This document shows positions 3,405-52,319 of a stretch of 64,000 nucleotides of DNA, piece by piece (position 1 is the first letter of the stretch; every line of letters starts with the position of its first letter). This stretch comes from a virus. The stretch is from the UHGV virus genome UHGV-0375936; one strand, written 5' to 3'. The translations under genes were made by a program, and so were the position numbers. The notes beneath the pieces were generated by a model that worked only from the letters and a program-made list of their open reading frames with translations, had not been told where the DNA came from and did not search any database.

Positions 3405-3406
3405 TC

Positions 3407-4141: not shown

Positions 4142-4232
4142 GTTGAATTCTCCTGTTAGTCTACATTAAAATAGTCGTAAACGTTAAAAAGAAAGACCCT
4201 CCTGTACCACGAAAGGGTACAGGAGGGGGGTG

Positions 4233-8812: not shown

Positions 8813-8866
8813 TTTAATAGTCCTCTTTTAGGTTTGTTCAAATCAACTAAGGGTTATGTAAAAAAG

Positions 8867-10644: not shown

Positions 10645-10717
10645 TTCCGTATTCCGTAAGACGAAATGACGGCGCGGACAGCTAATACTCCTTTGTTGTG
10701 TGCCCTAATGATAATAT

Positions 10718-35149: not shown

Positions 35150-38100
35150 ATGCCGAGAGAAGACGCGGCGCAGTTTAACGGTACGCTAAGCACAACGACG
35201 TACCCTAACCGATTTAACGTGGTCATTCCGCCTGAAGGACCTTTTTATCGTATCGGATTAAAACTCACAGTAGCCGACGATACCGCGCCTAACGGACGTC
35301 GTACTCTGATTGAGGGGTTGGACTACTATTTAGGCTATTACTTTAAAGAACTCGCAGAAGCTGAACAAGATCAGATTTATGGCGGGTTTATGTTGCTTAC
35401 TGCAACAGAAATCGAATATGAGATTTTAGGGGTAGCACGTCAATACCGTGTACCGCAATCTGAAATCGGGAAGTTCTTAGTTCGTACTGACCTGAAAGAC
35501 CCACGTAACGTGGACTGGTCAGAGTTAATGGCGTATGCGCCAGTTATTCAACCTATCGATCCCCCTGCTAACTTAGAAGAAGCTATCCTGAGGGATGAGG
35601 TTGTTAAAGCGTTAAACGATATCCGTAAGAAAATCATTCAACGTTCAACAGAGTTAGATGCAGCGTTTACCGAAGTCACTAACCTGATTTACGAGAACGG
35701 TAAAAAGATTTTCGATGAAGAACTATACCAACACCACCTTAATCCTAACGCTCACCAGTATACGACCACTGATGTTGGTGCTCTTCCGGTTTTGGGACGT
35801 GCTGTTGACGCGACAAAAGCGTTTGGACTGACGATTGACCAGCTGGCTACGCTGATGGGTTCGGCGGGTATTGAGCAATCAGACGTTGATCAGTTAATAG
35901 GTGAAGCCCTCGGCACTGTTTACGGTCGTTGGGGCAGCACGAACGGTAACGAACTGACGTTTAAAACCGCAGGCGGACACATCATCAGTATCCGTGGTGA
36001 TAAGTGGTTAATTACCTCACCGCAACCGTTGGTGATTAAAGCAGACCAGGACAACAACGAATCGGGTTTGGCGGTTGAATTTAGTGCGGGGCTGAATACG
36101 CTTTGGGTACACTCTGGGACAGAACAAGATGTATTAGCGCCGGTTTACAACTCTGTGTATTTGGTTACACCAGAAATGGTGAACATGTACCTTACGTCTG
36201 TAACGTTACTTGAAGCAAATGCCTATTTCAAACCATCAGACACCGTAAAACCATACGGTACAGCGAAGCAGTCTAATCCGCTAACGTTGAACGCGAATAT
36301 CCCCACAGCAACCGAGTCGGTTTATGGGGTGTTTTCGATTACGAATATCGCAACCTCCGTAGCACTAGGCACTGCTATTTCCCAAAAGGCGGTGACCGAA
36401 TTAAAAGACCGGTTAGACTTGTACGTTGACGATGACTACACGGTTAACGGTAAAGGGTTTGTTAAGACAGGCGATAAAATGGTGTTAACCTTAACGAAAA
36501 CCGATTTCGGTATCGATAAGATGGATAACACCACGCCGATCGCTAAACCGGTAACAAAAGCGTTAGCGAATGTGCTGAAAAATAAAAGTTTGAAGGTGCA
36601 TACGCACACTACCGCCGATTTGGATAATGTCCCGATTGGTAGTGCGACCGTGGATGGTATCTTACAGCTGTGGGATGCGATTGATACCACGAATGATAAA
36701 GCCGTCACATCACGCCAAGGGTGGTTGTTCGCAAAAGAGATTAAGAAGGTCTCTGATAAACTGAATACCCTCTTGCCCGCATGGACAACGTCCGGGAGCA
36801 AATACACCAATAATTCGATATTGCCGATCTTGTCGATGGGTAATTACGAAGGTTATGGTAAAAACATGGATGCGCTCCAGATGGTTATAGGGGTACAACA
36901 AGGTAAGCTTTATGCTTTAATTAGTTCTAAATCTGCCCTTCCGGGAACTGAGGGTATTTATTACGCTGTTGCTGGGTTAAAAAACGACAAAAGTCTCGGT
37001 GAAATTTACAAAACAACTTTCCGTTATAAGCCGAAAGGGTTAGAGACGAATTATCCGGGGGTGGAACTAAAAGAAATTACCGTTACTGGCACCGAAGCAT
37101 TTATAGCGAAGGGCAGCGACGATAATTATTATTTAGTTAAACTGAACGGTTCAATGGATTACACCAAACATACCGATGTCAGGTTGGTAACTTTCTCAGA
37201 ATTTGTTTCAGAAACAACATGGGAATTTGTGCCGAATATGTTCATGGATCGTGTGGTCATAGCCGATAACGGCGTCTATGTTTTGCGTACGATGCTAATG
37301 GCCGATCTGAAAAACAATAGTCTGGTGGACTACATTAAGGATACTCCGCAACCTATGTTCCGTGTTGGGTTATTGCGACTTAATAAAACCGATCGGTTTG
37401 AACAGGTTGATTTAAGCTCTACACGAAAAATCGGTAAGTGTGCCGATTTGGTTGAACCTGGCGCGTTCGATGTAGATAATCCGAATACGAAGCGTCTTGC
37501 CTACTTCACTGCGGAAGGCAAAGCGTTGTGGACAGTGAATTTACAATTAACTAGAGGGGTGTCAAGATGGATAACGCCCGTTGTTAAGGACGGTCACTTG
37601 TTAACCGTCGGCGTGTCTGGCGTTTGTCTTGGTTTTTCTTCAACGAAAGGTACCACATTCGGGCCATGGAATGGTGCTTATCGTCTCGACCTATTAACCG
37701 GGGAGGTTGGGTTAGAGACAACTAACATCTTCCCAATCAAAATCGATACTACAGGTTGCTACTTAAAAGACGGAACAAAAATAGAGCTGAAATGGAAATG
37801 GGCTACTCGAAGTTCTGGCTATATGGCCGACAATAGAATCTGTGTCGGTGATATGGTTTATTCTTGCTGCTGTTCGACAGAAAAACAACTTGCACCGTCT
37901 CTCCATTACCAGAAACTCCCAGAAGGAGTTAGTTATCTGGACTATGTTAAGTTGAGTGCGGGGTATGAGGGGCAATCTACGTTTGAAAATCGGATAAACC
38001 CTGTGGTGGGTTCGGTGTGGAAACCGTCTATGACCTTCCCATTGTTCTTCCCAGGAACAAACAAAGTATGGCTTAAACATCAAAAAACGGCTTATTTCAT

Positions 38101-40336
38101 TGAAGCCGAATATGATAAAGATACGACTTATGGTTATCCTGGATACGGCGGGTTTGGACCAACATCCCGCCGTGTTGAAAAAAAAGCGAACGAATACGGC
38201 GTATTGACAAATATACCGCTGGTTGTTACGCCAGACATACCGAAAGGTCTACTAGATGGGGCTTACTTTATCGGTGCTGAAAGTAAACCATGTAAAGTTG
38301 TTTACGGTACCACTACGGTGGCTAGTGATCGGTTGTCTATCGATGCGGCAGAATGGGCGAAGTTGACTAATATTGTTCAGTCCAGCCAGTTCTCTGGGGC
38401 TTCTAACGGCAACGCCTATGAGCGGATTAGCGTAGCTAAGACCAAAAAGAACAACTACAGTTTGTCCTTTTGGGTGCTTGGTCAAACGATGTCTGGTGGT
38501 CCGCTTTGTATCGCGATAGTGAGTCTTATCTATAAAGACACTGACGGGGTAAATAAGTTTGCTTTTTACTTCTTTCAGGTAAAACCGACTATAACCAACG
38601 GGGTCATAAGGTTCGTTAGTTCGGAAGCGAGAATGATGACGTTCAGGGAAAAAGTGGCCAGTAACGCCATTAATCTCTCACCCACAGCTTTTAATGGTGA
38701 ACTTAAACAACGCTCCGGTCAAGTTTTCCTTTATTCGCAAGACGGACAAAAGTTCAGATTCTCAATACATAACCTGGTTGGCGGGAATCTTGTAGGATCA
38801 GAGATTTCTTTTGCTTTTGGGATAAACTTGACTAAAAAAGGAGAATGGTTTACCGGCGAAATTCATCGGGCGTGGGGCTATACGTATACGCTGAATAATA
38901 CATCTGAAGTCTATATACCCGATCTCTCGGGCATCGCGCTATTGACTTGTAACTCGGAAGATTTAAACGAGTTGTATCTCGGTGGCGAACAGTATAGAAT
39001 CTCTGATTTGTTTAACAAAAAATATACTGTTATCGATAAGATTATTATTGGCGGCGTACAAACACAGAGCGGTTGGAATTTCTATCTGACGGAGGAAACC
39101 GAGTTAAGTTTTGGAAATAAAAGATATACCGTTCCAAGATGGTCCGTTGATTTAAGCGATGAATTCCCGACTAATCACGCTAACCAGACATTCTACGTTT
39201 ATGCTGAAGTGGTCGGTTCTACTGCCCAATACCGCATCGGTTTAGAGCAGTTAGCTGATACCTCGTCGAGACTGTTTGTTGGGACAGTAACCACTGATTC
39301 GAACCGTATTACGGATATCAGTATCGATAAAGTAAAACGGTTAGGTCGTGTAAAAGAGCTGGAAAATCATGCCTCGGTTGTTGATCAGCACGATGTGGCG
39401 CAGGCGTTCGACAGGAAAACTGGTCCACTATTAACAGTGGTTAATAAACCCGTTAAAGCCATTACAGCATCTGCGAGCAAGGGTGCTGGGTATGTCGATG
39501 GCCAGAAATGGAATACGTTGTCCGGGATTGCAACGCGGCCCAGGTTGCCGGTACAGGAAACCTATTCAGGTTATAAAAGTATCAGCAGGGTGGCGTATGA
39601 GAACTGCGCTGACCAGTTCTGGCAGAAAGCGGTTGCTGCGAACGTTGCAGCGGCTACTGCTTCTGAGAACAAACAAGCAGCAACCGCGAACATGAAGTGG
39701 TTGGGTGCGTATACGAAACCGACTACCGGCGAGTATGCATATCTGGCATTGAGTCTGCGTGTTAAAGTACCTGGCGATCCTGGTACTACTAATCGTCGAC
39801 TGAAAATCAGGCTTGCGGCCCCGACAGGTATAACTCAAGTTCGTTACGGGCTAAATCAGTCTGGCGGTACGATGACTGAACAGACAGTAACGCTAACTGC
39901 TAACAGTTACCTGGAAAAAGAACACGCGGGATTTAAGCCAGCCGCCGAAGTCCGCCTTCATGCTACGTTTGTCATTCCAAAAAATGAATACGATAGCTAC
40001 CGGACCAAATTTGGTGCTGTTCAGCTGATTGACGTTGAGACGAACACTGTCATTAAACAGACAGATATCGACACACCGTTTATCGTGTACACCGCCACAG
40101 AGCAAGCGGCACAATCTGGTTTGGTGTATAAAGCGGTTAAGAGTCAGTTTCGTCAACTCCCGGCTCAACCTGTCGTCATTGTAACTGATGGACAGACAGG
40201 GACTACACCACCGGTGAAAACCGCATATTCTGACGGCACGTTAACGGTCTACGTGGCAACCACGTACGATGCGGTTAACCCAGCACAAACTCGCGATATC
40301 GATAAGCTCCAGTTCAATCTTATGTTTACATCTTAA
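35150..40336 (+). CDS. tail-fibre-like protein (paralog 3 of 4)
   Basis: 1728 aa; AGGAG RBS; shared N-terminal domain (PPEGPFYRIGL...GLDYYLGYY). Confidence 0.65.
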   Translation: MPREDAAQFNGTLSTTTYPNRFNVVIPPEGPFYRIGLKLTVADDTAPNGRRTLIEGLDYYLGYYFKELAEAEQDQIYGGFMLLTATEIEYEILGVARQYRVPQSEIGKFLVRTDLKDPRNVDWSELMAYAPVIQPIDPPANLEEAILRDEVVKALNDIRKKIIQRSTELDAAFTEVTNLIYENGKKIFDEELYQHHLNPNAHQYTTTDVGALPVLGRAVDATKAFGLTIDQLATLMGSAGIEQSDVDQLIGEALGTVYGRWGSTNGNELTFKTAGGHIISIRGDKWLITSPQPLVIKADQDNNESGLAVEFSAGLNTLWVHSGTEQDVLAPVYNSVYLVTPEMVNMYLTSVTLLEANAYFKPSDTVKPYGTAKQSNPLTLNANIPTATESVYGVFSITNIATSVALGTAISQKAVTELKDRLDLYVDDDYTVNGKGFVKTGDKMVLTLTKTDFGIDKMDNTTPIAKPVTKALANVLKNKSLKVHTHTTADLDNVPIGSATVDGILQLWDAIDTTNDKAVTSRQGWLFAKEIKKVSDKLNTLLPAWTTSGSKYTNNSILPILSMGNYEGYGKNMDALQMVIGVQQGKLYALISSKSALPGTEGIYYAVAGLKNDKSLGEIYKTTFRYKPKGLETNYPGVELKEITVTGTEAFIAKGSDDNYYLVKLNGSMDYTKHTDVRLVTFSEFVSETTWEFVPNMFMDRVVIADNGVYVLRTMLMADLKNNSLVDYIKDTPQPMFRVGLLRLNKTDRFEQVDLSSTRKIGKCADLVEPGAFDVDNPNTKRLAYFTAEGKALWTVNLQLTRGVSRWITPVVKDGHLLTVGVSGVCLGFSSTKGTTFGPWNGAYRLDLLTGEVGLETTNIFPIKIDTTGCYLKDGTKIELKWKWATRSSGYMADNRICVGDMVYSCCCSTEKQLAPSLHYQKLPEGVSYLDYVKLSAGYEGQSTFENRINPVVGSVWKPSMTFPLFFPGTNKVWLKHQKTAYFIEAEYDKDTTYGYPGYGGFGPTSRRVEKKANEYGVLTNIPLVVTPDIPKGLLDGAYFIGAESKPCKVVYGTTTVASDRLSIDAAEWAKLTNIVQSSQFSGASNGNAYERISVAKTKKNNYSLSFWVLGQTMSGGPLCIAIVSLIYKDTDGVNKFAFYFFQVKPTITNGVIRFVSSEARMMTFREKVASNAINLSPTAFNGELKQRSGQVFLYSQDGQKFRFSIHNLVGGNLVGSEISFAFGINLTKKGEWFTGEIHRAWGYTYTLNNTSEVYIPDLSGIALLTCNSEDLNELYLGGEQYRISDLFNKKYTVIDKIIIGGVQTQSGWNFYLTEETELSFGNKRYTVPRWSVDLSDEFPTNHANQTFYVYAEVVGSTAQYRIGLEQLADTSSRLFVGTVTTDSNRITDISIDKVKRLGRVKELENHASVVDQHDVAQAFDRKTGPLLTVVNKPVKAITASASKGAGYVDGQKWNTLSGIATRPRLPVQETYSGYKSISRVAYENCADQFWQKAVAANVAAATASENKQAATANMKWLGAYTKPTTGEYAYLALSLRVKVPGDPGTTNRRLKIRLAAPTGITQVRYGLNQSGGTMTEQTVTLTANSYLEKEHAGFKPAAEVRLHATFVIPKNEYDSYRTKFGAVQLIDVETNTVIKQTDIDTPFIVYTATEQAAQSGLVYKAVKSQFRQLPAQPVVIVTDGQTGTTPPVKTAYSDGTLTVYVATTYDAVNPAQTRDIDKLQFNLMFTS

Positions 40337-40376
40337 CGCCACGAGACAAGGACGTCTCGGATTAAGGAGAGTGGCC

Positions 40377-41576
40377 ATGGCCTCCATTGTATACCAATAC
40401 CCTTTAGATTTAACGGGAACCCTAACCTCTAACGCCGTGGAGCGTCAGGTTACGTTAGGTACAGGTAAAGTTAACCGTGCGTTTGCTTTTCCTGACGGTC
40501 CGTTTTATGCTGATACGTTCCGCTTGCGGGTTGCTAACCGCCCAGATGCGACGTATGAGCGCGGAACGGACTATGAGTTGATTTTTGCACACCCGGCTTA
40601 CGAGAAATTGACGAAGAACCGGGAAGTGGTAATGGCGGTTGTTGTAACGAACACCGCGATTCCGACCGATATCACGGTATCGGCGCAAGTAGTCGGGGGC
40701 CCGCAGTCGGCAAACGTGACTGCGATAGAACAGGCGATTGCTGAGTTGAATCTCGATAATCGAACTGTTGGCTTTAAAGACTTGCGAAATGTTCCTGATA
40801 CATTTCCTTCGGCACCAACGTATAAAGACGTCGGCGATATTTACGGCTTCGAATACATCATTACAGTGCTCGCCGGTATTAAAGATGCGATAACTGCTGG
40901 CGATGCTGTACAGCTTGAGAACATCAAAGCGATTCTCGAAAGCCTGAAAAACGATTTCCTGGACGCGCTGAACGCGCACATTAACGCCACGGGTAACGTC
41001 CACCATCTGGATATTCACCAGGTTAACGGGTTAACAGAAACGGAGATCCGTGCACTGATCCGTGACGTACAGTCTGCCATCGATGCAACCATTACTGATA
41101 TTAATGCGTTGAAGAAAGCAGACGAAGCGTTAGGAAAACGTATTGATGCTGTTGTCAAATCTCTGGAAGCGTGGAACGACCAACTTAACGTCGTTGCACA
41201 AAACTACCAGAAAATGGCACTGGCAATGGCGAACCTAAACTCGTTAGTGTTACAGTTACAGAAAAATATCAACGATCTGAGCACCAAACTCAACCAAGCG
41301 ATTCAACGTATTGCTGCGTTAGAACAGCGGGGTAATGAGTCCGATCAGAAAATTGATAAACTGCAACAAAACCTGGATGCGCTTAAACAGCAGGTTAATA
41401 ATAACACGAACGCAATCAGTCAGGCGAATCAGAACCTACAAAACCATATTGCGGCAGACAACCCACACACAGGCTATCTCCACAAGAAATACGGTGGTGT
41501 GGTTCAGGCTCCAGTGCACGTTAACGCTAACTTGACGTCCCGTGATGACGTTCAGGCAGAAGCGGGTACGAAATAA
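40377..41576 (+). CDS. tail-fibre-like protein with coiled coil (paralog 4 of 4)
   Basis: ATG after AAGGAG; N-terminus FPDGPFYADTFRL...GTDYELIF shares the fibre N-domain; long heptad-like C-terminal region. Confidence 0.6.
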   Translation: MASIVYQYPLDLTGTLTSNAVERQVTLGTGKVNRAFAFPDGPFYADTFRLRVANRPDATYERGTDYELIFAHPAYEKLTKNREVVMAVVVTNTAIPTDITVSAQVVGGPQSANVTAIEQAIAELNLDNRTVGFKDLRNVPDTFPSAPTYKDVGDIYGFEYIITVLAGIKDAITAGDAVQLENIKAILESLKNDFLDALNAHINATGNVHHLDIHQVNGLTETEIRALIRDVQSAIDATITDINALKKADEALGKRIDAVVKSLEAWNDQLNVVAQNYQKMALAMANLNSLVLQLQKNINDLSTKLNQAIQRIAALEQRGNESDQKIDKLQQNLDALKQQVNNNTNAISQANQNLQNHIAADNPHTGYLHKKYGGVVQAPVHVNANLTSRDDVQAEAGTK

Positions 41577-41643
41577 CTTTATTACAGGAGGAACTATGCT
41601 TATGGGCGTAGTCCTCCATTCTTTTTTATTTTAAGGATACGTG

Positions 41644-42039
41644 ATGGCGATCAGTGTTAAAAATGTACGTGACCGAATCACCAACGTAGAGAACCAAATG
41701 GCAACTGGCCCACGTGTTGATCCGCAAGTTGCGTCGAAAGCACATAATGCCGCCGACACTTTTTCGGGTTGGACGCCAAGTCGGTTAGACTGCGGGGGAA
41801 GTTGCAGCTGGACGTGCTCAAACGGCTGTACGCACGGCTGTACGAGTTGTTCGGGCACCTGTACGTCAGTATGTGTAGGTAGCTGCTCCTCTGCGTGCGG
41901 TAACCAGTGTACTGGATGTAGTTCAACATGTTCCGGCGGCTGTTCAGGTTGCAGTGGGACCTGTGGTGGTGCTTGCTCGGGCCGTTGTTCTACGGGTTGT
42001 TCTGGTGCTTGCTCTGGTGGCTGTTCTGGCCCAACCTAA
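41644..42039 (+). CDS. Cys-rich peptide A, candidate RiPP precursor
   Basis: AAGGA RBS; about 50-aa leader then about 80-aa core with about 21 Cys, mostly C-x3-C (CGGSCSWTCSNGCTHGC...); track ORF starts 3 nt earlier at GTG. Confidence 0.6.
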   Translation: MAISVKNVRDRITNVENQMATGPRVDPQVASKAHNAADTFSGWTPSRLDCGGSCSWTCSNGCTHGCTSCSGTCTSVCVGSCSSACGNQCTGCSSTCSGGCSGCSGTCGGACSGRCSTGCSGACSGGCSGPT

Positions 42040-42049
42040 GAGGTGAAAA

Positions 42050-42448
42050 ATGGCAATTGGATTACCTGCGCTACAAGCGCGGCTAAATAACATTGACAAC
42101 ACTGCATTGAAGAATACGGGTGCAGTGCAAAACTATATTCGTGGGAAAGCGACGAACAACGCAGACTTATTCGGTGGACAAGCTCGCAACCATTACGACT
42201 GTGGTGGGAGCTGTAGCTGGACCTGTTCGAGCTGTTCTGGTGGTTGTACAGGGAACGCATCAGGCGGCTGTGGTTCTTCGTGTTCTGCAAACTGTGTATC
42301 AGGTTGCAGCGCAGGCTGTAGCGGATGTTCGAATACATGTTCTGGTGGCTGCTCAGGAAGCTGTACGGGGAGTTGTTCTAACTCGTGTGTGGGAAACTGT
42401 TCTTCAGGCTGCTCGGGCAGTTGTTCTGGTGGGTGTTCTGGGAGGTAA
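42050..42448 (+). CDS. Cys-rich peptide B, candidate RiPP precursor
   Basis: GAGGTG RBS, 10 nt after peptide A stop; core DCGGSCSWTCSSCSGGC... with about 20 Cys. Confidence 0.6.
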   Translation: MAIGLPALQARLNNIDNTALKNTGAVQNYIRGKATNNADLFGGQARNHYDCGGSCSWTCSSCSGGCTGNASGGCGSSCSANCVSGCSAGCSGCSNTCSGGCSGSCTGSCSNSCVGNCSSGCSGSCSGGCSGR

Positions 42449-42450
42449 TT

Positions 42451-42657
42451 GTGATTAGCCTTAAGAACCTTCGTGATCGATTAGTAACAGCGGAAGGGTA
42501 TATTACGACCGCTAACGCAAACAACTATATTGCAAACCAGGGCACCGTGTCTTCAACCAATAACCTTGCCGGTTTACCTTTAAGCCATTATAACTGTAAC
42601 GGCGGATGTAGCTGGTCGTGTAGCGGTAGCTGTAGTAAAGGCGCGGGGGGAAGGTAA
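42451..42657 (+). CDS. short Cys-rich peptide C, candidate RiPP precursor
   Basis: GTG start 5 nt after GGAGG, 2 nt after peptide B stop; leader VISLKNLRDRL resembles peptide A; core NCNGGCSWSCSGSCSKG. Confidence 0.5.
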   Translation: MISLKNLRDRLVTAEGYITTANANNYIANQGTVSSTNNLAGLPLSHYNCNGGCSWSCSGSCSKGAGGR

Positions 42658-42806
42658 CTAAGCCCTCCAGTGGTAGTATGTCTATTACGCAATAACCGAG
42701 TTAATCGTACGGGTTTACTACTGAGTTTCAAGTTACCGGTAGGCAATGGTGCGGTGGTTTCTATACCCTGAATGTCCGTTTGACCGTGAAATAATTGGAG
42801 CAATCA

Positions 42807-43694
42807 ATGAAGAATGATTTACATTTAGCATACAAAACAATTTTCAATCATCCACTTCACATTTCTTCCCCTGATTCCGTACGTGCACACTTAGCAGATG
42901 AAGTTCGTCTGCTGACTCAGTTGCCGGGCGAATGGCCTAAAGTACGCGGACGTTTCTTTACCGATCGTAAAAACTATCGTGTAGAAAATACGTTTAAGAT
43001 TCGTGATCTGACGGCAGAAAGTGTGGTGGTCTTTACCGGTGACTCCGAGTTGCGTGGTAAACTGGTTGCGGGTAAATATTTCTTTAGTGACGGGATTTTG
43101 AATAACTCCGTAGATATGGAATTGTTCTTTACCCCATTTGAAGAAATGGGCGCAAAACCGGTTGCCCGTCGTTGGTGGTCACCGGATTACTTAGGCTCGT
43201 TCCCGTATTTCTTTACCCTGGTAACACCAGAAACGAAGAACTATTTCGATACGGAATCGTATATCGAAATTGAAGGGTACGAAGCGTTAGGGATTAATTG
43301 CTTAGCGGATTTAATGGCGTATAGCTATAAGTTCGTGTGGGATCGTGAACGTTCCGTGTGGGTTGCCCTGACGGATGAACATGAAATCACAAAACGCATC
43401 CGTAAGCCTTGGATGCAGCATTTGATTCAAACGCGTATTGGCGAGCATCCGTCAACAGAAGCGGATCTGGCAAAACTCCTTAGTTTCTTAATGACGAAAG
43501 TCACGTTAACTGACGAAGAGAAAGCAGCAGTGTCGGCGGTGTTGGACCGTAACGTAACGTTAGCGGATTTAGAACGTTTAAATGTCCGTTATAAAGACCT
43601 TAACCGTATTTTGGAAGCGTATAACTCTCCATTCTTGTTAACCCCTGGTGCTAACGTAGACGACGATCCTTTGTTCGCCATTGATTATATTTAA
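42807..43694 (+). CDS. hypothetical protein, candidate RiPP accessory
   Basis: ATG at 42807 with GGAG RBS; 296 aa between precursors and radical SAM genes; no motif recognised. Confidence 0.55.
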   Translation: MKNDLHLAYKTIFNHPLHISSPDSVRAHLADEVRLLTQLPGEWPKVRGRFFTDRKNYRVENTFKIRDLTAESVVVFTGDSELRGKLVAGKYFFSDGILNNSVDMELFFTPFEEMGAKPVARRWWSPDYLGSFPYFFTLVTPETKNYFDTESYIEIEGYEALGINCLADLMAYSYKFVWDRERSVWVALTDEHEITKRIRKPWMQHLIQTRIGEHPSTEADLAKLLSFLMTKVTLTDEEKAAVSAVLDRNVTLADLERLNVRYKDLNRILEAYNSPFLLTPGANVDDDPLFAIDYI

Positions 43695-43715
43695 AAACGA
43701 CCGGAGTCACCTGCA

Positions 43716-44639
43716 ATGACAACCAATGCAGAACCAAGGTTATCGAATCGTTTATACGATAAACCCACCGTATTGTCCGTAGTCGCTACGTCCAAGTGTA
43801 ACCTGGATTGTAGCTTCTGCGGTGGAGCCTATTACATGAATCGTGAAGATTCTCCGCGAGAGTTTCAACGTGAGCGAATTTTGGAAGCGCTGGAAGCTAA
43901 TCCAACCATTACCGAAATTCAGTGGACGGGTGGTGAGCCATTACTGGCAACCCGTAAAATTGAGGCGTTTGTTGACGAATTAAAAGTGATTCGTCCAGAA
44001 CTCAAACACCAGTTGTATACCAATGGCTTAAAGATGCGTAAATCGCATCTCCCGTTGCTAAAACAGTTTGACAATGTCTACGTTAGCATCGATGGGTTTA
44101 AGTCGTCTGAGCGCCCGTTTATGCGCTTTATTGACGAAGGCTGTTACGAAGCACTGGAAACGATCTACGAGCTGGATAATGTCCAGACTTGGGGTGTCCT
44201 GACACGGGACCGTTTAGGGGACAAACGCTGGCACGAAGATATTATTCAGCTGCACAGCGCGATTTACCATTACGGTTTCCGTGCAATGACGTTACTCTTA
44301 GATGCGAAAATGCCAAAACCTTTATCGCCTGACCACGTCATGAACTTTATTTACGGCTACTATCAGGTTCAGGATAACATTGAACGACTGAATGTAGTAA
44401 ATAGTCGTGAATGCGGCTTTACAGTAAGTAAAGTGTTTGAAGAAGGGTGTAACGTTTGCAGCGAAAGTCTTTGGATTAATGCAGACGGCGGTGAGCACCA
44501 ACTCCAGAATGCACCTAACGTTCTGGAATCGGGATGTAACCAACTGGCCTTCTCTATCGGTGTAGAGGCGTACGAATATATTCGTCGCGTAGTGATGGCA
44601 GGGCGTAATAGAGGGGCGGCAAATGAGTCAAGTAAATGA
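43716..44639 (+). CDS. radical SAM enzyme
   Basis: CNLDCSFC (CxxxCxxC) near N-terminus, GGEPLL SAM-binding motif, four more Cys in the C-terminal third. Confidence 0.8.
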   Translation: MTTNAEPRLSNRLYDKPTVLSVVATSKCNLDCSFCGGAYYMNREDSPREFQRERILEALEANPTITEIQWTGGEPLLATRKIEAFVDELKVIRPELKHQLYTNGLKMRKSHLPLLKQFDNVYVSIDGFKSSERPFMRFIDEGCYEALETIYELDNVQTWGVLTRDRLGDKRWHEDIIQLHSAIYHYGFRAMTLLLDAKMPKPLSPDHVMNFIYGYYQVQDNIERLNVVNSRECGFTVSKVFEEGCNVCSESLWINADGGEHQLQNAPNVLESGCNQLAFSIGVEAYEYIRRVVMAGRNRGAANESSK

Positions 44640-45945
44640 ATTCCCTAAGCAGTTAACGTATCAGATCGTAACCAACCTTTCGTGTAACCTGGACTGCGAA
44701 TATTGTTACGAACGTAAGTACCCGCGTAACAACAAAGCGGCGGATATTGTTGATTTCTTACACGCCTGTTTTGAACGTGATAAAAACGAACCGAATGTTG
44801 AAGTTATTATCGACATTATCGGTGGTGAGCCGTTCATGCAGCCTAAACTGCTGCTGGCTGCGTTTGAAACCGCTGAGCAGTTGTGTAAAGAACACAACCG
44901 ACCGTTTATGTTTAGTATTTCCACGAACGGAACGCTGTTAGATCGTCCGTTGAACCGTGAGATCGTAGAACGTTGGAAAGATAAACTTTCGGTTGGGGTT
45001 TCGATTGACGGCTTACCTGAGTCCCATGACCGTTATCGTATCTTCACAACAACACGCCAGGGTTCTTACGAAGCCGCAGTACGTGGCTATAACTACTTAA
45101 AAGAGGTTGGCATTGCAGAGCTCGGCGTAAAAGCAACCTTTACGTTAGAAACGCTGCCGTTCTATGCTGCGGGGATGAAGTCATTAATTGACATTACTGG
45201 CGGTGGGACAATTTCTGGAAACGTAACTTTCGAAGACGTTATGCCGCGTAGCATGGCGACATCAATCGCTTTACAGATGATGGATGTGATCGATTATTGG
45301 GTTGAGAAAGGATTACACACCAACCCACGTAATATCTTATCGCACATCATTCCAGAAGGGTTGGATTTCGATACGATTTGGGAACCGAACTGGCGTGACC
45401 AGTTACTGTATAATGACACCGTACGGTTGAACCCAGAACGTTTACGTCCGTTCTGTGGGACGTTAACGCACATGACGTGCTTAGGATTTGACCGTAAGAT
45501 CTTTGGCTGTAACCGCTTTATGTCAACGGTAACGTCGCGTTCTGCGGTGTTTGAGTTGGTAGGTCGGGAATTCGTCAGTCTGGACAACGGTAAGCTGCTA
45601 GAAGAGATTCAAACGCAATATACCAACTACCCAGAGACCTGTTTAGGTTGTCCGATGAAACACGCTTGTGGTAGCTGTGCTGCGGCTTCTTACGAGAACG
45701 GGGAAGGAACGTTAGAAGACCGTAAGGCGTATCACGCTGAACGACGTCAGTGCGGCTGGACGACAGCGAAACTGATGGTGGCGGAATACTGGAAACAGAA
45801 GATGGGTACGACGTCAGCAAAAGCGTTCCATGACACGAGCATGTGTTATTGCCCACGCTGTGTTCGTGAACGTGCCCAAAAGGAAAAATTATTAAGAGAA
45901 GCCAAAGATGAAACCAATTCTGATCAACAATATTACGAAGCGTAG
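44623..45945 (+). CDS. radical SAM enzyme with SPASM-like domain
   Basis: CNLDCEYC, IGGEPF, STNGTLL, and C-terminal CLGCPMKHACGSCAA Cys cluster; 17-nt overlap with upstream radical SAM gene. Confidence 0.8.
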   Translation: MSQVNEFPKQLTYQIVTNLSCNLDCEYCYERKYPRNNKAADIVDFLHACFERDKNEPNVEVIIDIIGGEPFMQPKLLLAAFETAEQLCKEHNRPFMFSISTNGTLLDRPLNREIVERWKDKLSVGVSIDGLPESHDRYRIFTTTRQGSYEAAVRGYNYLKEVGIAELGVKATFTLETLPFYAAGMKSLIDITGGGTISGNVTFEDVMPRSMATSIALQMMDVIDYWVEKGLHTNPRNILSHIIPEGLDFDTIWEPNWRDQLLYNDTVRLNPERLRPFCGTLTHMTCLGFDRKIFGCNRFMSTVTSRSAVFELVGREFVSLDNGKLLEEIQTQYTNYPETCLGCPMKHACGSCAAASYENGEGTLEDRKAYHAERRQCGWTTAKLMVAEYWKQKMGTTSAKAFHDTSMCYCPRCVRERAQKEKLLREAKDETNSDQQYYEA

Positions 45946-46480
45946 AATTCGACTTCTGGATAAGTTTCTGGAAAACAGTAAGCTATTCGGTTGTTATGTG
46001 GTGATTAACGGTGAAGATTTTACCGATGACGTAAAACGCTTACTGATTCGTCACGGCGTGACTGTAATCATCCCAATGTACTGCACCGAACTTACTGACC
46101 TGTCGGTCGCGGAAATTGAAAAACGTAACCCAGGGTTTGAAGAACGGGTATTGGATTTCCCACGTCACAAAATTGCGTTTCTACGCCGCTCTTTAAGCGA
46201 ACCCAGCGCAGAATCTATCACTGTGTTGGCATTGTCCTTCCCAGGCATTACTATCTTCGCAACACGTAACCCGAACTCACCGATTGATGGGTTTTACGAT
46301 GAGCGGGAGAAATTTAATAGCGTGATTTTTCCTGAACTAACGCCAGAAGAATGTCAGGGTATCCGTATCGATTGGGAATCGGACTTCGACACAAGATTCC
46401 GTCATATCGATTTTGAACTGTTAATCGAATTAGGGTTGATTAAAGGAGACGATGAATGTCTGCTACTGGTGAAGGCTTAA
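45908..46480 (+). CDS. hypothetical protein
   Basis: 190-aa ORF overlapping the end of the radical SAM gene. Confidence 0.5.
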   Translation: MKPILINNITKRRIRLLDKFLENSKLFGCYVVINGEDFTDDVKRLLIRHGVTVIIPMYCTELTDLSVAEIEKRNPGFEERVLDFPRHKIAFLRRSLSEPSAESITVLALSFPGITIFATRNPNSPIDGFYDEREKFNSVIFPELTPEECQGIRIDWESDFDTRFRHIDFELLIELGLIKGDDECLLLVKA

Positions 46481-47127
46481 CGAAAGAAGAAATCCGTCGC
46501 CGTTATTTTGCGCACGATTTACCGATTGACCGTCATGGTAACTACATGGAGAAAATCGGTAGCGAAGATCACGGCCGTACAGGGTTTTGTGCATTACTGC
46601 ACTATAAGTTGATTGATGGGATGTCTGATCGCGAAGCATTGGAGCAAATGCGTAACTACGACATGTCTGAAATCGAAGCACGGTTTACGCTACAGAAAGC
46701 GAAAGACTTTGTTAACGACACGCTGGGAATTGACCTGGAAGAGATTCGTACGGGGTTACGTTCCACCGTACGGTACATCTTTACCGATGTTCAGAAAATT
46801 CTAAGCGCTTTGGAATTCCGTTATCAGGATGCGCGCTATGCTGAGATTCAGGTAGGTGATTTCACTTTCCAGGCAGATGAGAAGTCACAGGTAGCACTGA
46901 GTCGTTATATCCAGTCAGAAACTGCGCCAGCGTATTGGTTAACGGCTAACAACACCCGTATCGAACCGTTTACGTTAGAACAGTGCAAGACGTTGCTGGC
47001 AGCAATCGTTGAGCGTGATCAAAGACTACACCACGCAATGTCTGAGCAGAAAAGAGAAGTCAGGGCTTGGGCTGAAGCACGTGATTACGATTCGATAAAA
47101 GCGTTTGCGTTAGAGCAAGGGCTGTAA
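46456..47127 (+). CDS. hypothetical protein
   Basis: 223-aa ORF overlapping previous gene; last gene before bidirectional terminator. Confidence 0.5.
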   Translation: MSATGEGLTKEEIRRRYFAHDLPIDRHGNYMEKIGSEDHGRTGFCALLHYKLIDGMSDREALEQMRNYDMSEIEARFTLQKAKDFVNDTLGIDLEEIRTGLRSTVRYIFTDVQKILSALEFRYQDARYAEIQVGDFTFQADEKSQVALSRYIQSETAPAYWLTANNTRIEPFTLEQCKTLLAAIVERDQRLHHAMSEQKREVRAWAEARDYDSIKAFALEQGL

Positions 47128-47134
47128 TCGACAG

Positions 47135-47190
47135 CGAAAAAAACAGTATACCTACCTCCCGTAATAGGAGGTAGGTATTTTTATTTTTTC
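47135..47190. terminator. bidirectional Rho-independent terminator
   Basis: 12-bp perfect stem ATACCTACCTCC-CGTAATA-GGAGGTAGGTAT flanked by A-run and T-run. Confidence 0.7.
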
Positions 47191-47721
47191 TTAGGACGTA
47201 AAACCGTCCAGCTCACCGTTGGTGGTGGCCAGGTCAATACGATTATCAACAACCTTCGGCGTAATTACGAAAGTTGCCATTACACCTGGCTTATAACGGA
47301 GGTTCTTTTCAGTAACGGTACACGTTACCGTACGCAGAGTGACGCTATCGTGTTCGTCTTTCTGGTCTTCGGTGGTGTACTCAGCGTCACCAGGTGCGAT
47401 AGAGTCGTCAGGTTTTACTTTATTGATGTAAAACTGTAATCGGTCGCGTAGTTCGTTTTCTCCAGTCCAGAGAGCCAAATCGTCCGTTACCTCAATGCGT
47501 CCGACAACGCCAGGTTCCAGACGATCGTAATGCAGTTCGATTGCGCCTTTAAAATTTTCAGACTCTGTACGTGCGGTCATGGTAACTTTGGTATTTTTAT
47601 CGCCCTTTTCAAGAGCGACAGGTTGACCAAAAGTTACCTCTTTATCAGTGACCTGATGCGGTAGCTCTGTGTTAGCAGCATTATAAAGCGCAACTAACAT
47701 CATCTGGTTAGTAGCTGCCAT
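47191..47721 (-). CDS. putative virion protein, paralog family B
   Basis: Shares NTKVTMTARTESENFKG...HYDRL and NGELDGFT with 47787..48353. Confidence 0.5.
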   Translation of the reverse strand: MAATNQMMLVALYNAANTELPHQVTDKEVTFGQPVALEKGDKNTKVTMTARTESENFKGAIELHYDRLEPGVVGRIEVTDDLALWTGENELRDRLQFYINKVKPDDSIAPGDAEYTTEDQKDEHDSVTLRTVTCTVTEKNLRYKPGVMATFVITPKVVDNRIDLATTNGELDGFTS

Positions 47722-47786: not shown

Positions 47787-48353
47787 TTACTCTTTAGGCG
47801 CTGGTGCGGTGAAGCCATCCAGTTCACCTTCCAAACCGCTCAGTGCTACTTTCTCAAGAGCTGGAGGGGTAACTTTATACGTCGCAACAGTACCTGGCAG
47901 GAACTTCAAGTGGCCAGCCACAACCGTTACCACGTAAATGGTTTTGCCTTCTTCTTCACGAGAGATAGTTTGCAGGTCGTTTTCACCGAACTCGTCATCG
48001 GTGTACCCTTTCTCAGCCATGGCTGCGTTAACTTTCGCCAGGATTTTCGTCGGTGAATCGAAATCGGTAGTAGGTGCAGTTACTTCAACTTCACCAACGA
48101 TGTCGCAGGAAAGACGAGTATAGTGGAATTCTTTCTCGCCTTTGAAGTTCTGGCTTTCTGCCTTGGCGGTCAGAGTAATTTTAGTGTTGCGGCCAGCTTC
48201 TCCGGTGAACTCAGCGACAGCACTAAAATTAACATCATTTACAGTCAGCTTAGAAGCAGTTTGGTTGTTTTTAGCAATTACAATCTCGATAAGCTGCTGT
48301 TGAAAAGTTTTAGCCATTGTTTTTACCTCGTAAGTAGTATGGGTGGTTTGCAT
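47787..48353 (-). CDS. putative virion protein, paralog family B
   Basis: Paralog of 47191..47721. Confidence 0.5.
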   Translation of the reverse strand: MQTTHTTYEVKTMAKTFQQQLIEIVIAKNNQTASKLTVNDVNFSAVAEFTGEAGRNTKITLTAKAESQNFKGEKEFHYTRLSCDIVGEVEVTAPTTDFDSPTKILAKVNAAMAEKGYTDDEFGENDLQTISREEEGKTIYVVTVVAGHLKFLPGTVATYKVTPPALEKVALSGLEGELDGFTAPAPKE

Positions 48354-49055: not shown

Positions 49056-49571
49056 TTAAATCTCGACTAAGGCGCTCCAATCGATTGGTTTTTGCTTAAC
49101 AACCTTCACAGTACCTCGATTTGGTGACCAGAAAGTAATGTTAGGCTGGTTACGAACGTCAATGTGCAACCAACTGATGTCACATTCAATAAAGTGAATG
49201 AACGGAAACTCGTCAGGGTTAGCAGCGATATAGTCGTGAACCTGTTTTACGGTGCTATCCAACAACGTTGCGTCAATGGCGTTACCGAATTTGTGTTGAC
49301 TTCCTGAATCGGCGTAAAGCTGCAACGCACGTTGTTTATAACTACCGCCCTTAGGCTTTTCTTGATTAATAAAGAAATCTAAGGTTCTTAGTCCACGTTG
49401 TTGTGCGGCAGTTGAGTTAATCACCATTCTACCGAAACGGTTACGAATCTGTTGTAGGGAGATCATTAACAACGGATTCATAAACCGAATTGCAGAATCG
49501 CCGTATTTGGCAATATAGGACTGTGGTACTAACTCTCTGAGTTTAAAGTTACTCGGATTTGGATGAAACAT
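49056..49571 (-). CDS. peptidase M15-like (VanY/L-Ala-D-Glu peptidase type) protein
   Basis: SQHKFGNAIDA fits SxHxxGxAxD; later WLHID His motif. Confidence 0.55.
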   Translation of the reverse strand: MFHPNPSNFKLRELVPQSYIAKYGDSAIRFMNPLLMISLQQIRNRFGRMVINSTAAQQRGLRTLDFFINQEKPKGGSYKQRALQLYADSGSQHKFGNAIDATLLDSTVKQVHDYIAANPDEFPFIHFIECDISWLHIDVRNQPNITFWSPNRGTVKVVKQKPIDWSALVEI

Positions 49572-50223
49572 CTTCCCTCCCAGACAGAAATGCCCGTTTA
49601 ATGTTCAGGTATTTGACATTAACGGGACAATCTGTGGTGATATCAATACGTTCGTGGTCAGGGATTGCAGGTTCCTTAAACTCGCGAACGAATAAATAGT
49701 TTCGATTATAATCTAACGTACGAAACGCGTTAGTGTTGTAGGATGGCTTTGCATTAGGATCTACGTAGGCATCCCAGCCGAATTCAACAACGGCCTTATA
49801 AAATGTTTGGCAGATATAAGGCGAGATTTCCAACGACTGCATAATACGCAGGAAAGTTAAGTCAGAGAACTCTTTATCGATGAAACGCGAAACGTTACCA
49901 CCCGGTGTCATGGGATAGCTACGCTCCGTGTTGCATTTTTGATAGAGTAAGTCGTGAATACAGGCCGCAGGTGCCCACGGTCCGTCAGGATGGAAAATTC
50001 CCTGGAGGTGTTCAGGAATTGACGCTAAATCAGTAACGAACCCTTTCGGTGCTGTTAACCACAGTTGTGTGTCAGGCAATACACCGGTTAAATAAACCGC
50101 ACGGTCTAAGTGTACGTGGTCGTGATATATCTCACGTAACGTAAACGGATAATGGTAATCCTCCGTTAATACAAACCACTTATTGTCTAAACGTTTATAT
50201 TGAAGCTTCTCCATTACCCACAC
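49549..50223 (-). CDS. hypothetical protein
   Basis: 224-aa ORF overlapping start of the M15 gene. Confidence 0.5.
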   Translation of the reverse strand: MWVMEKLQYKRLDNKWFVLTEDYHYPFTLREIYHDHVHLDRAVYLTGVLPDTQLWLTAPKGFVTDLASIPEHLQGIFHPDGPWAPAACIHDLLYQKCNTERSYPMTPGGNVSRFIDKEFSDLTFLRIMQSLEISPYICQTFYKAVVEFGWDAYVDPNAKPSYNTNAFRTLDYNRNYLFVREFKEPAIPDHERIDITTDCPVNVKYLNIKRAFLSGREDVSSKSE

Positions 50224-50330: not shown

Positions 50331-50921
50331 TCATTTTACTAACCCCGCCTTCACTACATAATCCGGCATTTCCCTGAACACACGTGCATACCAACCGTAA
50401 GCGAATTTTTCATTCTTCTTACGCTTTTCGGAGATTTCTGTGTAGTAAGTTACCTGGTGTGAGATTAACGCAAAGATTAAAATGCCTAATCCCTCGCCTT
50501 TACGGTAATTCAGATAAGCATTCAGAGCACCTAGCGTTTTAGGCCCCATACCGCCGTCGGTGTCAATATCTGCGTAAAGTTTCCCTTCGTTATTTAAAAC
50601 GTTGAGAATACGTTGTAACGATTTCACACAGTTAACACGGCCAGAGTTAATAGCAAAATCAAACATCCGGTCGGCGAGTATCGGCGAGATAGCGAAAATC
50701 TCATCGAGTTTAAGTTTCTTCCACCAACCACGATCGTAAATGTCAAACGCTTGCGCACGGGTCAGATCTTTCATTCTTCCTTTGTACCCGTATTCGCGTG
50801 CAGTTGTCAGTGTTACCCCGTGACAGGTTTCCCCACCTTTATCGTCAGGGTCGTTCACGTACCCACCCTCTAAATCTGTTTTTGATTCAATAATACCTTC
50901 TTTAGTCCAACGTTCGGCCAT
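50331..50921 (-). CDS. endolysin-like GH108 lysozyme with peptidoglycan-binding region
   Basis: N-terminal EGGYVNDPDDKGGETCHGVT typical of GH108; C-terminal region consistent with a PG-binding module. Confidence 0.7.
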   Translation of the reverse strand: MAERWTKEGIIESKTDLEGGYVNDPDDKGGETCHGVTLTTAREYGYKGRMKDLTRAQAFDIYDRGWWKKLKLDEIFAISPILADRMFDFAINSGRVNCVKSLQRILNVLNNEGKLYADIDTDGGMGPKTLGALNAYLNYRKGEGLGILIFALISHQVTYYTEISEKRKKNEKFAYGWYARVFREMPDYVVKAGLVK

Positions 50922-50992: not shown

Positions 50993-51457
50993 TTAGCGAG
51001 ATGGCTTGGCTGGCGCTGCGGCGACAGACGGTTTACGCGCAACACGCACTGTAAAACCACCGACCCAGGTTAGACACTCAGGACGGAAGAAAATACCGTG
51101 TTCGATTGCACTGCCGTCCAGCGGTAACGCACCAACCTGCTCTACCCATACGTCGTCTTCGGTAAGGGTTAAGCCATATTGCTCGTTAATTACAGGCAGC
51201 AGATCCGCAGTTGTGGTAGCTGATTCAACTAACAGTTTCGGCAATACGTTGAGGAAATACAAGCCTGCATCGATGCGGTTATACTGGAACGTTTGCTTAT
51301 TAGCATAACCGAGATTCTTAACCGCCACAACCGTAATTTCGGTATTGTAAGTACCGGTACTTACGACGGGATCAGCCAATGTGACTTTGGCGGTGTCAAG
51401 CTCAGCGTCTGGGTTAGCCTTTTTAATAAGGTCGAAGATAGTTTCTTGACTGGTCAT
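50993..51457 (-). CDS. putative virion protein, paralog family B
   Basis: Shares ...Y.R..... and DLLPVINEQYGL motifs with 51471..52319. Confidence 0.45.
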   Translation of the reverse strand: MTSQETIFDLIKKANPDAELDTAKVTLADPVVSTGTYNTEITVVAVKNLGYANKQTFQYNRIDAGLYFLNVLPKLLVESATTTADLLPVINEQYGLTLTEDDVWVEQVGALPLDGSAIEHGIFFRPECLTWVGGFTVRVARKPSVAAAPAKPSR

Positions 51458-51470: not shown

Positions 51471-52319
51471 TTAATCTAAGAATCCCGGTAAGACCGAATT
51501 AGTCTTGGCTAATTCAATCTTCGACTTCGGACGATCGGTTCCGTTAAAGTGGATTAACAGATTACCGGTCAGGTTAGCACACATACCGCTTAGGGCGAGT
51601 ACCAGCACACGTGTGTACTTCGCATTTGCACCTTCGAAACCTGCGGTAGGGCCATCGTAGATAACCTTAGCACCGTAGAGGTTATTAGCAACGTTCTTAG
51701 GTACGCTTACCCATTTCTCATCAACGACGTTGACCAGTTTAGTGGCTAACTCAGCCATGTCGACAGTGTCGTTGATGGTAATCGGATCGAGGTAATCTTT
51801 TTCTGCGGTGAAGTCAATTGGATAAGAATAAACCGCAGCATTACCTTTCTTAGTGGACGGATACTCTACCAGGTTTTCTAATTGAGTAACAGGTAACAGT
51901 TTAGCCAGATCAATAGGATCGCGTAGCGTGAGTGTCACCTCGCCACACCACTCGTAGGATTTCTCGTTAGCGGTAAGCTGATGGGATTCACCTTCAACTT
52001 TCGCATCAACGATATCCGACGGTAGAATATTTAAATCGTATTTTGCGTTAATCGCATTAAGCAAATCTGCGGCGGTTACAACACCGTCGTTACCGAATAC
52101 CAACTCACCTGTTAGGTATTCGGGCAAATTACGACGATGGTAAGTCACGGTTAAAGTAGTAGACTCATCGCCTTTGAGTTTAGAAGTCAGAACCACCTGG
52201 GTATCAACCCCAGTACCAGTAGGTTCGCCGATATCAACATCACTGAAAGTCAATGGCGGAACAATATTGTTTTCAGTGTTGATGAGTTTTAGCAGTTTCT
52301 GTTTTGACGTAAGAGACAT
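51471..52319 (-). CDS. putative virion protein, paralog family B
   Basis: LTVTYHRRNLPEYL and DLLNAINAKYDLN related to neighbours. Confidence 0.45.
   Translation of the reverse strand: MSLTSKQKLLKLINTENNIVPPLTFSDVDIGEPTGTGVDTQVVLTSKLKGDESTTLTVTYHRRNLPEYLTGELVFGNDGVVTAADLLNAINAKYDLNILPSDIVDAKVEGESHQLTANEKSYEWCGEVTLTLRDPIDLAKLLPVTQLENLVEYPSTKKGNAAVYSYPIDFTAEKDYLDPITINDTVDMAELATKLVNVVDEKWVSVPKNVANNLYGAKVIYDGPTAGFEGANAKYTRVLVLALSGMCANLTGNLLIHFNGTDRPKSKIELAKTNSVLPGFLD

Follow-up and report, generated by a model that had tools for sequence, protein, structure and literature searches.

We lean towards a reading in which rSAM1, a short radical SAM protein of virus genome UHGV-0375936, is a catalytic enzyme with a three-Cys auxiliary cluster that, together with a long partner enzyme (rSAM2) and an accessory protein of the A5 family, cross-links the Cys-rich tails of fibre-tip proteins. 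In the window, by which we mean the whole stretch of 64,000 nucleotides that was analysed, the putative substrates are three small paralogous Cys-rich proteins encoded just upstream, and intramolecular thioether cross-links within such tails would rigidify the fibre tip.

The 307-aa open reading frame that the preliminary description had placed at 43716-44639 on the plus strand is present exactly there; it starts with ATG, approximately 11 nt downstream of a GGAG, and the radical SAM core that had been read into it (CNLDCSFC together with GGEPLL) was found at residues 28-35 and 72-77. Pfam Radical_SAM (PF04055) matches residues 23-136 with an E-value of 6e-14 and 53 bits, against a gathering cut-off of 29.5, and Fer4_12 is matched with 30.6 bits (cut-off 22). 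Since the Pfam score lies far beyond chance, the motif is not a random one and the gene is a true radical SAM gene, and the profile assignment that had been proposed as a check places rSAM1 in the radical SAM superfamily. Judged by its sequence, rSAM1 is a genuine radical SAM enzyme, in which C28, C32, and C35 are the putative ligands of the SAM-activating [4Fe-4S] cluster. In A3, an alignment of the rSAM1 family that reaches approximately 20% identity, the invariant residues are C28, C32, C35, G72, G73, E74, N103, G104, C245, G273, and C274, and the strict conservation of CX3CX2C and GGE down to this level argues for SAM cleavage having been retained. The protein is predicted to be catalytically competent, its partial TIM-barrel core being followed by a short C-terminal domain. 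Public records name the gene merely “radical SAM protein”, while one automated annotation calls it moaA; furthermore, in the SPN3US record the start of the homolog gp164 has been placed at an internal Met, and the annotated protein therefore lacks CX3CX2C.

rSAM1 matches phrog_1802 with an E-value of 3.4e-61. It shares full-length homology, the C-terminal signature described below, and the cassette neighbourhood with a phage short-rSAM family that we define here through alignments A2 and A3 and that is part of phrog_1802. When 5.8 billion proteins were searched with rSAM1, only 41 clusters were retrieved, and the contigs that encode them nearly all measure 190-280 kb. Searching 1.84 billion representatives exhaustively with a profile yielded 16 proteins below 1e-30 as well as further full-length matches (260-330 aa), with the remaining matches sharing the radical SAM core only. 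Moreover, tblastn identified 62 phage records, all from SPN3US/PhiEaH2/CR5-type jumbo phages of Enterobacterales and at best 69% identical, and the IMG/VR contig L008 (225 kb) encodes a protein identical to rSAM1. As far as these searches indicate, rSAM1 is a member of a small, phage-restricted family.

By predicted fold and by profile comparison, the closest structures to rSAM1 are peptide- or protein-modifying SPASM enzymes. Foldseek against the PDB ranked CteB first (E-value 3e-11), followed by SuiB, viperin-like enzymes, anSME, and EpeE, and a profile search of PDB sequences put TigE, CteB, and YydG at the top; the identity to CteB (PDB 5WGG), the radical SAM/SPASM thioether maturase of SCIFF, is approximately 17%. 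The outcome that the preliminary description had named as speaking against its reading, namely best matches to families unrelated to peptide modification and no auxiliary-cluster domain, is not what emerged, as peptide-modifying enzymes stand nearest. At the family level, 58 NCBIfam families matched rSAM1, all of them through the core only and far below cut-off, so that no NCBIfam family was assigned. Membership was rejected both for the PapB family (NF047865; 41.3 bits against a cut-off of 340) and for HxsC (TIGR03977; 38.9 against 267.9 bits, covering profile positions 27-115 only, and with neighbouring repeats that are Cys-rich and not HXS). An N-terminal RRE, the element with which RiPP maturases of the CteB, SkfB, and SuiB type bind the leader peptide, is absent from rSAM1, because the core begins at residue 19, leaving only 18 residues before its first strand in the AlphaFold2 model. 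A YydG-like epimerase was likewise ranked low, since rSAM1 has no conserved Cys beyond its six presumed cluster ligands that could act as an H-atom donor. In the YydG/EpeE epimerase, a conserved non-ligand Cys fills this role, and the PDB titles for EpeE include a C223A mutant.

The same searches bear on the idea that rSAM1, like MoaA, viperin, or QueE, acts on a non-protein substrate such as a nucleotide or a cofactor, and that its gene, with a metabolic or anti-defence role, lies in the tail region only incidentally. We regard this as highly improbable: families of that kind were matched through the core only and far below their cut-offs, peptide-modifying enzymes ranked higher in both profile and fold searches, and it would be left unexplained why, in phages of unrelated types, the gene strictly accompanies Cys-rich fibre tails (see below).

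The Cys residues of rSAM1 are located at positions 28, 32, 35, 143, 233, 245, 248, and 274. Four further Cys had previously been noted towards the C-terminus, in the strings CGF, GCNVC, and SGCNQ; these strings are indeed present, but only C245, C248, and C274 are conserved, with C248 being kept in at least 90% of the A3 sequences. C143, a fifth non-core Cys that had been missed, is confined in the alignment to close relatives of rSAM1, as is C233, which by the same comparison is lineage-specific. The first C-terminal Cys pair is CxxC in rSAM1 and CxC in distant family members, and the C-terminal signature of the family reads C-x(1,2)-C-S, followed after approximately 25 residues by G-C. This conserved signature leaves three candidate Cys ligands, not four.

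An AlphaFold2 model of rSAM1 built with the family alignment (pLDDT 88, pTM 0.86) predicts, in this order, helix 205-229, strand 234-237, C245 and C248, strands 251-254 and 260-262, C274, and helices 275-281 and 283-306, with C245/C248 and C274 flanking a predicted beta-hairpin and a helix coming next. The twitch-like partial auxiliary domain suggested for this region is plausible from its topology, as a hairpin and helix with conserved Cys fit, but finds no support from profiles, as no SPASM or twitch model from Pfam or NCBIfam aligns with the C-terminal region; “twitch-like” is therefore a statement about topology only. The NCBIfam twitch model NF033640 reached 37.7 bits against a cut-off of 170, again through the core, and in an hhalign comparison of the rSAM1 and rSAM2 families residues 18-182 (the core) aligned, while the SPASM domain did not. 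A non-significant HMMER segment pairs CxCS...GC with CX2CX5CX3C...C of CteB and was not relied upon.

SPASM domains carry the seven-Cys motif CX9-15GX4C-gap-CX2CX5CX3C-gap-C and bind two auxiliary clusters, whereas twitch domains are truncated SPASM domains comprising a beta-hairpin, a helix, and a single auxiliary cluster (PMC6231123). With three conserved C-terminal Cys as opposed to seven, and no profile match, rSAM1 was ruled out as a SPASM enzyme. Its C-x(1,2)-C...(~25)...G-C arrangement around a predicted hairpin and helix rather resembles the twitch enzymes MoaA, BtrN, and SkfB, which have one auxiliary cluster with hairpin and helix; the three-Cys pattern of MoaA is CX2CX13C. From alignment and model, the C-terminal domain of rSAM1 most likely holds one auxiliary Fe-S cluster through C245, C248, and C274. 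Three-Cys ligation would leave one iron of this cluster free for a substrate ligand. Open-iron auxiliary clusters are found in MoaA, where GTP is bound, and in CteB, where Aux I binds a substrate Cys (PMC6231123), and a direct substrate Se-Fe contact at the auxiliary cluster has been described for the thioether synthases PapB and Tte1186 (PMC10177961). A three-Cys site opposite a substrate so rich in Cys would agree with this precedent, and by analogy the free iron in rSAM1 may bind the substrate thiolate. Compared with the known systems, rSAM1 would be most like a CteB/SkfB-type thioether synthase minus the RRE and the second auxiliary cluster, with MoaA-like three-Cys ligation.

The rSAM1 gene sits in a tight tail operon, between tail proteins. 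All genes from 35150 to 47127 lie on the plus strand with short gaps or overlaps between them (Table 1), and megablast of 41600-47200 against phage records retrieved only SPN3US-like jumbo phages, at approximately 72% nucleotide identity. The window thus stems from a jumbo phage of the SPN3US type. The SPN3US counterparts are gp163 (long rSAM), gp164 (short rSAM), gp165, gp167 (virion structural), and gp168, the last of which is a tail protein related to phiKZ gp131 at the baseplate periphery (PMC5105663). The gp167 homolog is encoded directly upstream of the Cys-rich genes, and at the far end of the run the DUF4376 protein shows weak matches to tail-fibre PHROGs (phrog_1807, tail fibre, 2.4e-4).

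Table 1. Genes of the tail operon around rSAM1 and sequence motifs within rSAM1, with positions in the window.
Feature	Position	Strand	Remarks
1728-aa tail/baseplate-fibre protein (SPN3US gp168 homolog)	35150..40336	+	phrog_7449
Coiled-coil virion structural protein (SPN3US gp167 homolog)	40374..41576	+	phrog_2163, E 7e-104; SPN3US annotation
Cys-rich protein A	41644..42039	+	131 aa, 21 Cys; phrog_6085, E 1.6e-40
Cys-rich protein B	42050..42448	+	132 aa, 20 Cys; paralog of A; phrog_6085
Cys-rich protein C	42451..42657	+	68 aa, 5 Cys; GTG start after GGGAGG; phrog_6085, E 2.3e-24
A5 accessory protein (SPN3US gp165 homolog)	42807..43694	+	A5 family, phrog_8030; conserved fourth component
rSAM1 (SPN3US gp164 homolog)	43716..44639	+	307-aa short radical SAM ORF
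CX3CX2C motif (C28, C32, C35)	43797..43820	+	invariant in A1, A2, A3
GGE SAM-binding motif (G72, G73, E74)	43929..43937	+	invariant in A3
C245-N-V-C248	44448..44459	+	just before predicted strand 251-254
C274 in invariant G273-C274	44535..44537	+	invariant in A2, A3; directly before predicted helix 275-281
rSAM2	44623..45945	+	440-aa long rSAM with SPASM-type C-terminal domain of 7-8 Cys; overlaps the rSAM1 3' end by 17 nt
190-aa protein	45908..46480	+	phrog_7988; overlaps rSAM2; conserved only in the jumbo-phage version of the cassette
DUF4376 protein, 223 aa	46456..47127	+	Pfam DUF4376, E 5e-11; last gene of the plus-strand run

As the preliminary description had said, rSAM1 is the shorter of two adjacent maturase candidates (307 aa against 440 aa for the adjoining rSAM2). 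rSAM2 scores 116.8 bits with the NCBIfam PapB model (cut-off 340) and 114.7 bits with the CXXX-repeat maturase model TIGR04115, the latter covering profile positions 3-345 of 359 and also remaining below cut-off, and its conserved Cys are C278, C286, C296, C340, C343, C349, C352, and C377. These matches suggest that rSAM2 is a SPASM enzyme of the PapB/CXXX-repeat-maturase type; it offers no room for an N-terminal RRE. The two genes would form a translationally coupled pair, with rSAM1 as the short, phage-specific member. No known fold was recognised in the A5 accessory protein (approximately 250-300 aa), which the preliminary description had not connected with the other three components.

Each of the three Cys-rich genes has its own ribosome-binding site. 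Protein A consists of an N-terminal segment of approximately 50 aa with a tail-fibre-like NAxxLxG...Y motif, followed by CxGxCSWTCS and CXXX/CXX repeats; protein B matches the Cys-rich repeat model TIGR04114 weakly (19.4 bits against a cut-off of 20); and protein C is a short paralog that retains only the CxGGCSWSCSGSC junction. An alignment across phages revealed three orthologous types, each with an N-terminal part of approximately 50 aa ending in NAxxLxG...Y, a near-invariant C-x-G-x-C-S-W-[ST]-C, and CXXX/CXX repeats. The tails contain 20-23 Cys per approximately 80 residues, and the repeats mix CXXXC and CXXC spacings. In both reference records that were checked (SPN3US and Asesino), the Cys-rich proteins are unannotated or mis-framed; the three Cys-rich ORFs of SPN3US lie at 7950-8342, 8353-8757, and 8773-8979 of L001. 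The proteins had earlier been taken for precursor peptides; their homology, however, is to tail-fibre proteins of phages, at the C-terminal tip, and they are not RiPP precursors of the usual kind. By this homology, proteins A-C are candidate virion components, as stand-alone homologs of fibre tips.

A cassette of four parts, namely a Cys-rich CXXX-repeat protein or tail-fibre C-terminus, an A5 protein, a short rSAM, and a long PapB/CXXX-type SPASM rSAM, was found in 26 of the 27 phage and prophage loci examined, using HMMs of three protein families against six-frame ORFs. The order Cys-rich ORFs, A5, short rSAM, long rSAM is shared by SPN3US (L001), L004, and 17 jumbo-phage loci drawn from the IMG/VR set L008-L025. 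L002 contains all parts of the cassette and an extra short rSAM ahead of the A5 gene, and a second short-rSAM copy also occurs in L009 and L010. The pattern is repeated on the contigs L127, L128, and L130, and in the first of these the Cys-rich tail ends a protein with tail-fibre repeats. Genes of the rSAM1 and rSAM2 types adjoin each other, overlapping or abutting where checked. The exception, and a point against the preferred reading, is L129, a phage-like locus with two long rSAMs and no short rSAM.

The loci that tell most are those of distant rSAM2 homologs, since these occur in unrelated prophages. In a P2-like prophage of Campylobacter pinnipediorum (L006), a 384-aa Phage_tail_fib protein (PF12571, E-value 1.8e-40; L006 positions 3070-4224) ends in GCNGCSGSCSGSCSSGCTACSGCSGSCSGKSDGCGC, and the gene order is baseplate J, tail protein I, fibre, an A5-like 250-aa protein, long rSAM, short rSAM, sheath, and tube. 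In a Deferribacter prophage (L005), the gene for a GpJ-like protein precedes that for a 302-aa tail-fibre-repeat protein ending in NADQLGGQAGSYYRCSDCSWTCSSSC and CXXX repeats, and genes for an A5 protein, a short rSAM, and a long rSAM come next; the 302-aa protein matches phrog_6085 (E-value 4e-12), and its A5 neighbour matches phrog_8030 (1.9e-11). In hhalign, the short rSAMs of both prophages aligned with the rSAM1 family over their full length, with probabilities of 98.9% (Deferribacter) and 98.6% (Campylobacter) and with the C-terminal Cys in register. Bona fide tail-fibre proteins of P2-like and lambda-like prophages thus carry the Cys-rich tail as a fusion.

These fusions weigh against a classical RiPP interpretation, according to which the Cys-rich proteins consist of leader and core and give rise to a diffusible peptide such as a bacteriocin or a host-manipulating ranthipeptide or sactipeptide, and rSAM1 is one of two maturases unrelated to the virion. 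The small size of the putative precursors (68-132 aa), their conserved N-terminus of approximately 50 aa and hypervariable Cys-rich C-terminus, the similarity of rSAM2 to PapB and SCIFF maturases, and the fact that the structures nearest to rSAM1 are RiPP maturases would all suit such a system. However, other phages carry the same Cys-rich tail as the C-terminus of full-length fibre proteins, and the would-be leader contains the tail-fibre-type NAxxLxG..Y motif and shares its PHROG with the fibre-like protein of the Deferribacter prophage. Since, in addition, neither a leader peptidase nor an exporter nor an RRE domain was detected, and the genes lie inside a tail operon, we consider this interpretation unlikely.

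Outside phages, bacterial relatives of the long rSAM (approximately 26% identity) adjoin, among the matches listed, CXXX-repeat proteins, with peptides of 62-94 aa at one end of the range and proteins that have 112-122 Cys in 668-672 aa at the other; the matches listed in this contig profile search, which used the long-rSAM alignment, are mostly generic SPASM enzymes. No short rSAM or A5 protein was found at the bacterial CXXX-repeat loci among the matches listed. The NCBIfam pairing TIGR04114/TIGR04115 makes the homologous long rSAM of bacteria the defining neighbour of a CXXX-repeat protein; this speaks for the repeats being the substrate, and we infer that the Cys-rich tails are substrates of the rSAM pair. 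This neighbourhood also speaks against the possibility that the tails are unmodified metal- or Fe-S-binding modules and that the two rSAMs have a role in some other step of assembling the fibre. While so many Cys (20-23 in approximately 80 residues) would be in keeping with metal binding, and metal-binding fibre tips exist in other phages (T4 gp12 and gp37), we give this possibility very little credence.

A close comparison is with the PapB/TIGR04115 enzymes and their TIGR04114 repeat proteins, the family of the partner rSAM2, whose substrates, with a Cys at every fourth residue, are of the same kind as the putative substrate here. PapB makes Cys-to-Asp thioethers, and the substrate Cys contacts its auxiliary cluster (PMC10177961). 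Two differences stand out, in that the phage Cys-rich repeats lack the Asp acceptor of PapA, and in that the bacterial PapB/TIGR04115-type systems, among the matches listed, consist of one long enzyme with neither a short partner nor an A5 protein.

A long and a short enzyme do occur together in another system, HxsB/HxsC (TIGR03978/TIGR03977), which likewise combines a long SPASM enzyme and a short one of approximately 290 aa with a repeat peptide. rSAM1 and the short enzyme of the Deferribacter prophage partially match HxsC, and rSAM2 partially matches HxsB; however, the match of rSAM1 is limited to the N-terminal core, and the substrate repeat differs. To our knowledge, the Hxs system is itself uncharacterised. 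Like HxsC relative to HxsB, rSAM1 could be an auxiliary subunit of rSAM2, acting as a scaffold, in electron relay, or in substrate delivery without modifying the tails itself. The adjacent genes, the matches of both proteins to these paired families, and the bacterial CXXX systems that, among the matches listed, need the long enzyme only would agree with such a role. It nevertheless appears improbable to us, as strict conservation of both catalytic motifs down to approximately 20% identity argues for SAM cleavage, and as the two short enzymes per long enzyme in L002, L009, and L010 fit catalysis better than a fixed 1:1 subunit. That the bacterial systems, among the matches listed, manage with the long enzyme alone is at the same time a counterpoint to the cross-linking reading.

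All four alternatives were ranked lower because the fusion to fibres, the strict conservation of catalytic motifs, and the co-occurrence across phages are hard to reconcile with them. In the preferred reading, that of fibre-tip cross-linking, the rSAM1/rSAM2 pair and the A5 accessory protein would act on the CXXX-repeat tails with which the tip proteins of tail fibres end. The cross-links would most likely be intramolecular thioethers, as the analogy with PapB, CteB, and Tte1186 suggests. rSAM1 itself may perform a step that is not needed by the bacterial single-enzyme systems: it could form rings of a second size, act at the conserved CxGxCSW junction, or catalyse another reaction, for instance epimerisation or a further type of cross-link. 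Extended to diverse phages (phiKZ-related jumbo, P2-like, and lambda-like), we tentatively propose that an rSAM pair and a chaperone-like protein of novel fold build a ladder of cross-links into a CXXX-repeat fibre tip, with the three-Cys cluster of rSAM1 binding substrate thiolates in a step that bacterial CXXX-repeat systems do not require; we hold this broader proposal with less confidence than its counterpart for the window. No literature was found that links radical SAM enzymes to tail fibres, fibre tips, or Cys-rich repeats of this kind, and there is a considerable probability that the whole cassette stands for a way of modifying virion proteins that has not been described before.

If this is correct, radical SAM peptide chemistry would build host-recognition organelles of phages and not only secreted natural products: a RiPP-type modification would be applied to a structural protein of the virion, and some phages would chemically staple the fibres by which they recognise their hosts. 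It would also account for the hitherto unexplained presence of radical SAM genes within structural modules of jumbo-phage genomes, such as the eight in a structural cluster of an Aeromonas jumbo phage, which were called “highly unusual” (PMC12390700). Moreover, it would identify fibre-tip proteins that are absent or mis-framed in the SPN3US and Asesino annotations and that may therefore have escaped virion proteomics searched against them. For enzymologists working on RiPPs, a new family of short radical SAM proteins with a three-Cys auxiliary site would be defined, along with a naturally paired system of long and short enzymes that has a simple, repetitive substrate. Finally, it would suggest that the infectivity of these phages depends on the Fe-S and redox status of the host.

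Several components of this system are missing or misdrawn in the annotations of reference phages. In SPN3US, none of the three Cys-rich genes is annotated, and the sole CDS called across the region, ACQ60_gp100/SPN3US_0166, is in the wrong reading frame; similarly, overlapping, mis-framed calls were found in Erwinia phage Asesino. Because the genes are unannotated or mis-framed in these records, the Cys-rich proteins would escape proteomics searches that use either annotation. The start of the SPN3US short radical SAM (rSAM) enzyme, gp164 (264 aa), was placed at an internal Met equivalent to M41 of rSAM1, its 307-aa homolog in the window, so that the annotated protein lacks the CX3CX2C motif, which is encoded in open frame upstream. 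Furthermore, the source's gene calls for a 169-kb contig carrying the cassette (L130) miss the short-rSAM ORF and have, in its place, a 180-aa gene on the other strand. The short-rSAM family may be under-counted in protein databases.

Downstream in the window, several small minus-strand proteins look like paralogs, with similar C-termini in at least three of them (...ELDGFTS, ...GELDGFTAP... and ...LPGFLD); DUF7941 is annotated in the corresponding area of a related locus (L004). The neighboring 196-aa and 224-aa ORFs occupy the positions of the Glyco_hydro_108/PG_binding_3 and DUF1353 genes of related loci (L002, L004), and this pair is ordinary lysis/tail-associated context. Lysozyme-like features were also observed in the 196-aa ORF.

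Putative, very large substrates for the long-rSAM class are encoded in Margulisiibacteriota and Termititenax genomes. These proteins are 667-672 aa long, their CXXX repeats contain 112-122 Cys, and each adjoins just one long rSAM, a relative of rSAM2, the 440-aa SPASM-type partner of rSAM1. In some related jumbo phages (L002, L009, L010) the short rSAM is duplicated, with the extra copy lying between Cys-rich genes A and B in L009 and L010; this hints that the short enzymes are substrate-specific.

Coordinates of features in the window and in related loci
Feature	Locus	Position	Remark
Cys-rich genes	SPN3US (L001, NC_027402)	7950-8342, 8353-8757, 8773-8979	absent from annotation
ACQ60_gp100/SPN3US_0166	SPN3US (L001)	8426-8761	
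gp164, as annotated	SPN3US (L001)	10031-10825	
Mis-framed calls	Asesino (L126)	2748-3535	
Short rSAM	L130	5105-6001	
Short rSAM, extra copy	L009 and L010	4471-5391	between genes A and B
Short rSAM, two copies	L002	8001-8963, 9792-10655	
Large CXXX-repeat proteins	L046	3081-5084	
	L047	3387-5402	
	L048	3650-5650	
Small proteins, apparent paralogs	window	47191-47721, 47787-48353, 50993-51457, 51471-52319	(-)
224-aa ORF	window	49549-50223	(-)
196-aa ORF	window	50331-50921	(-)
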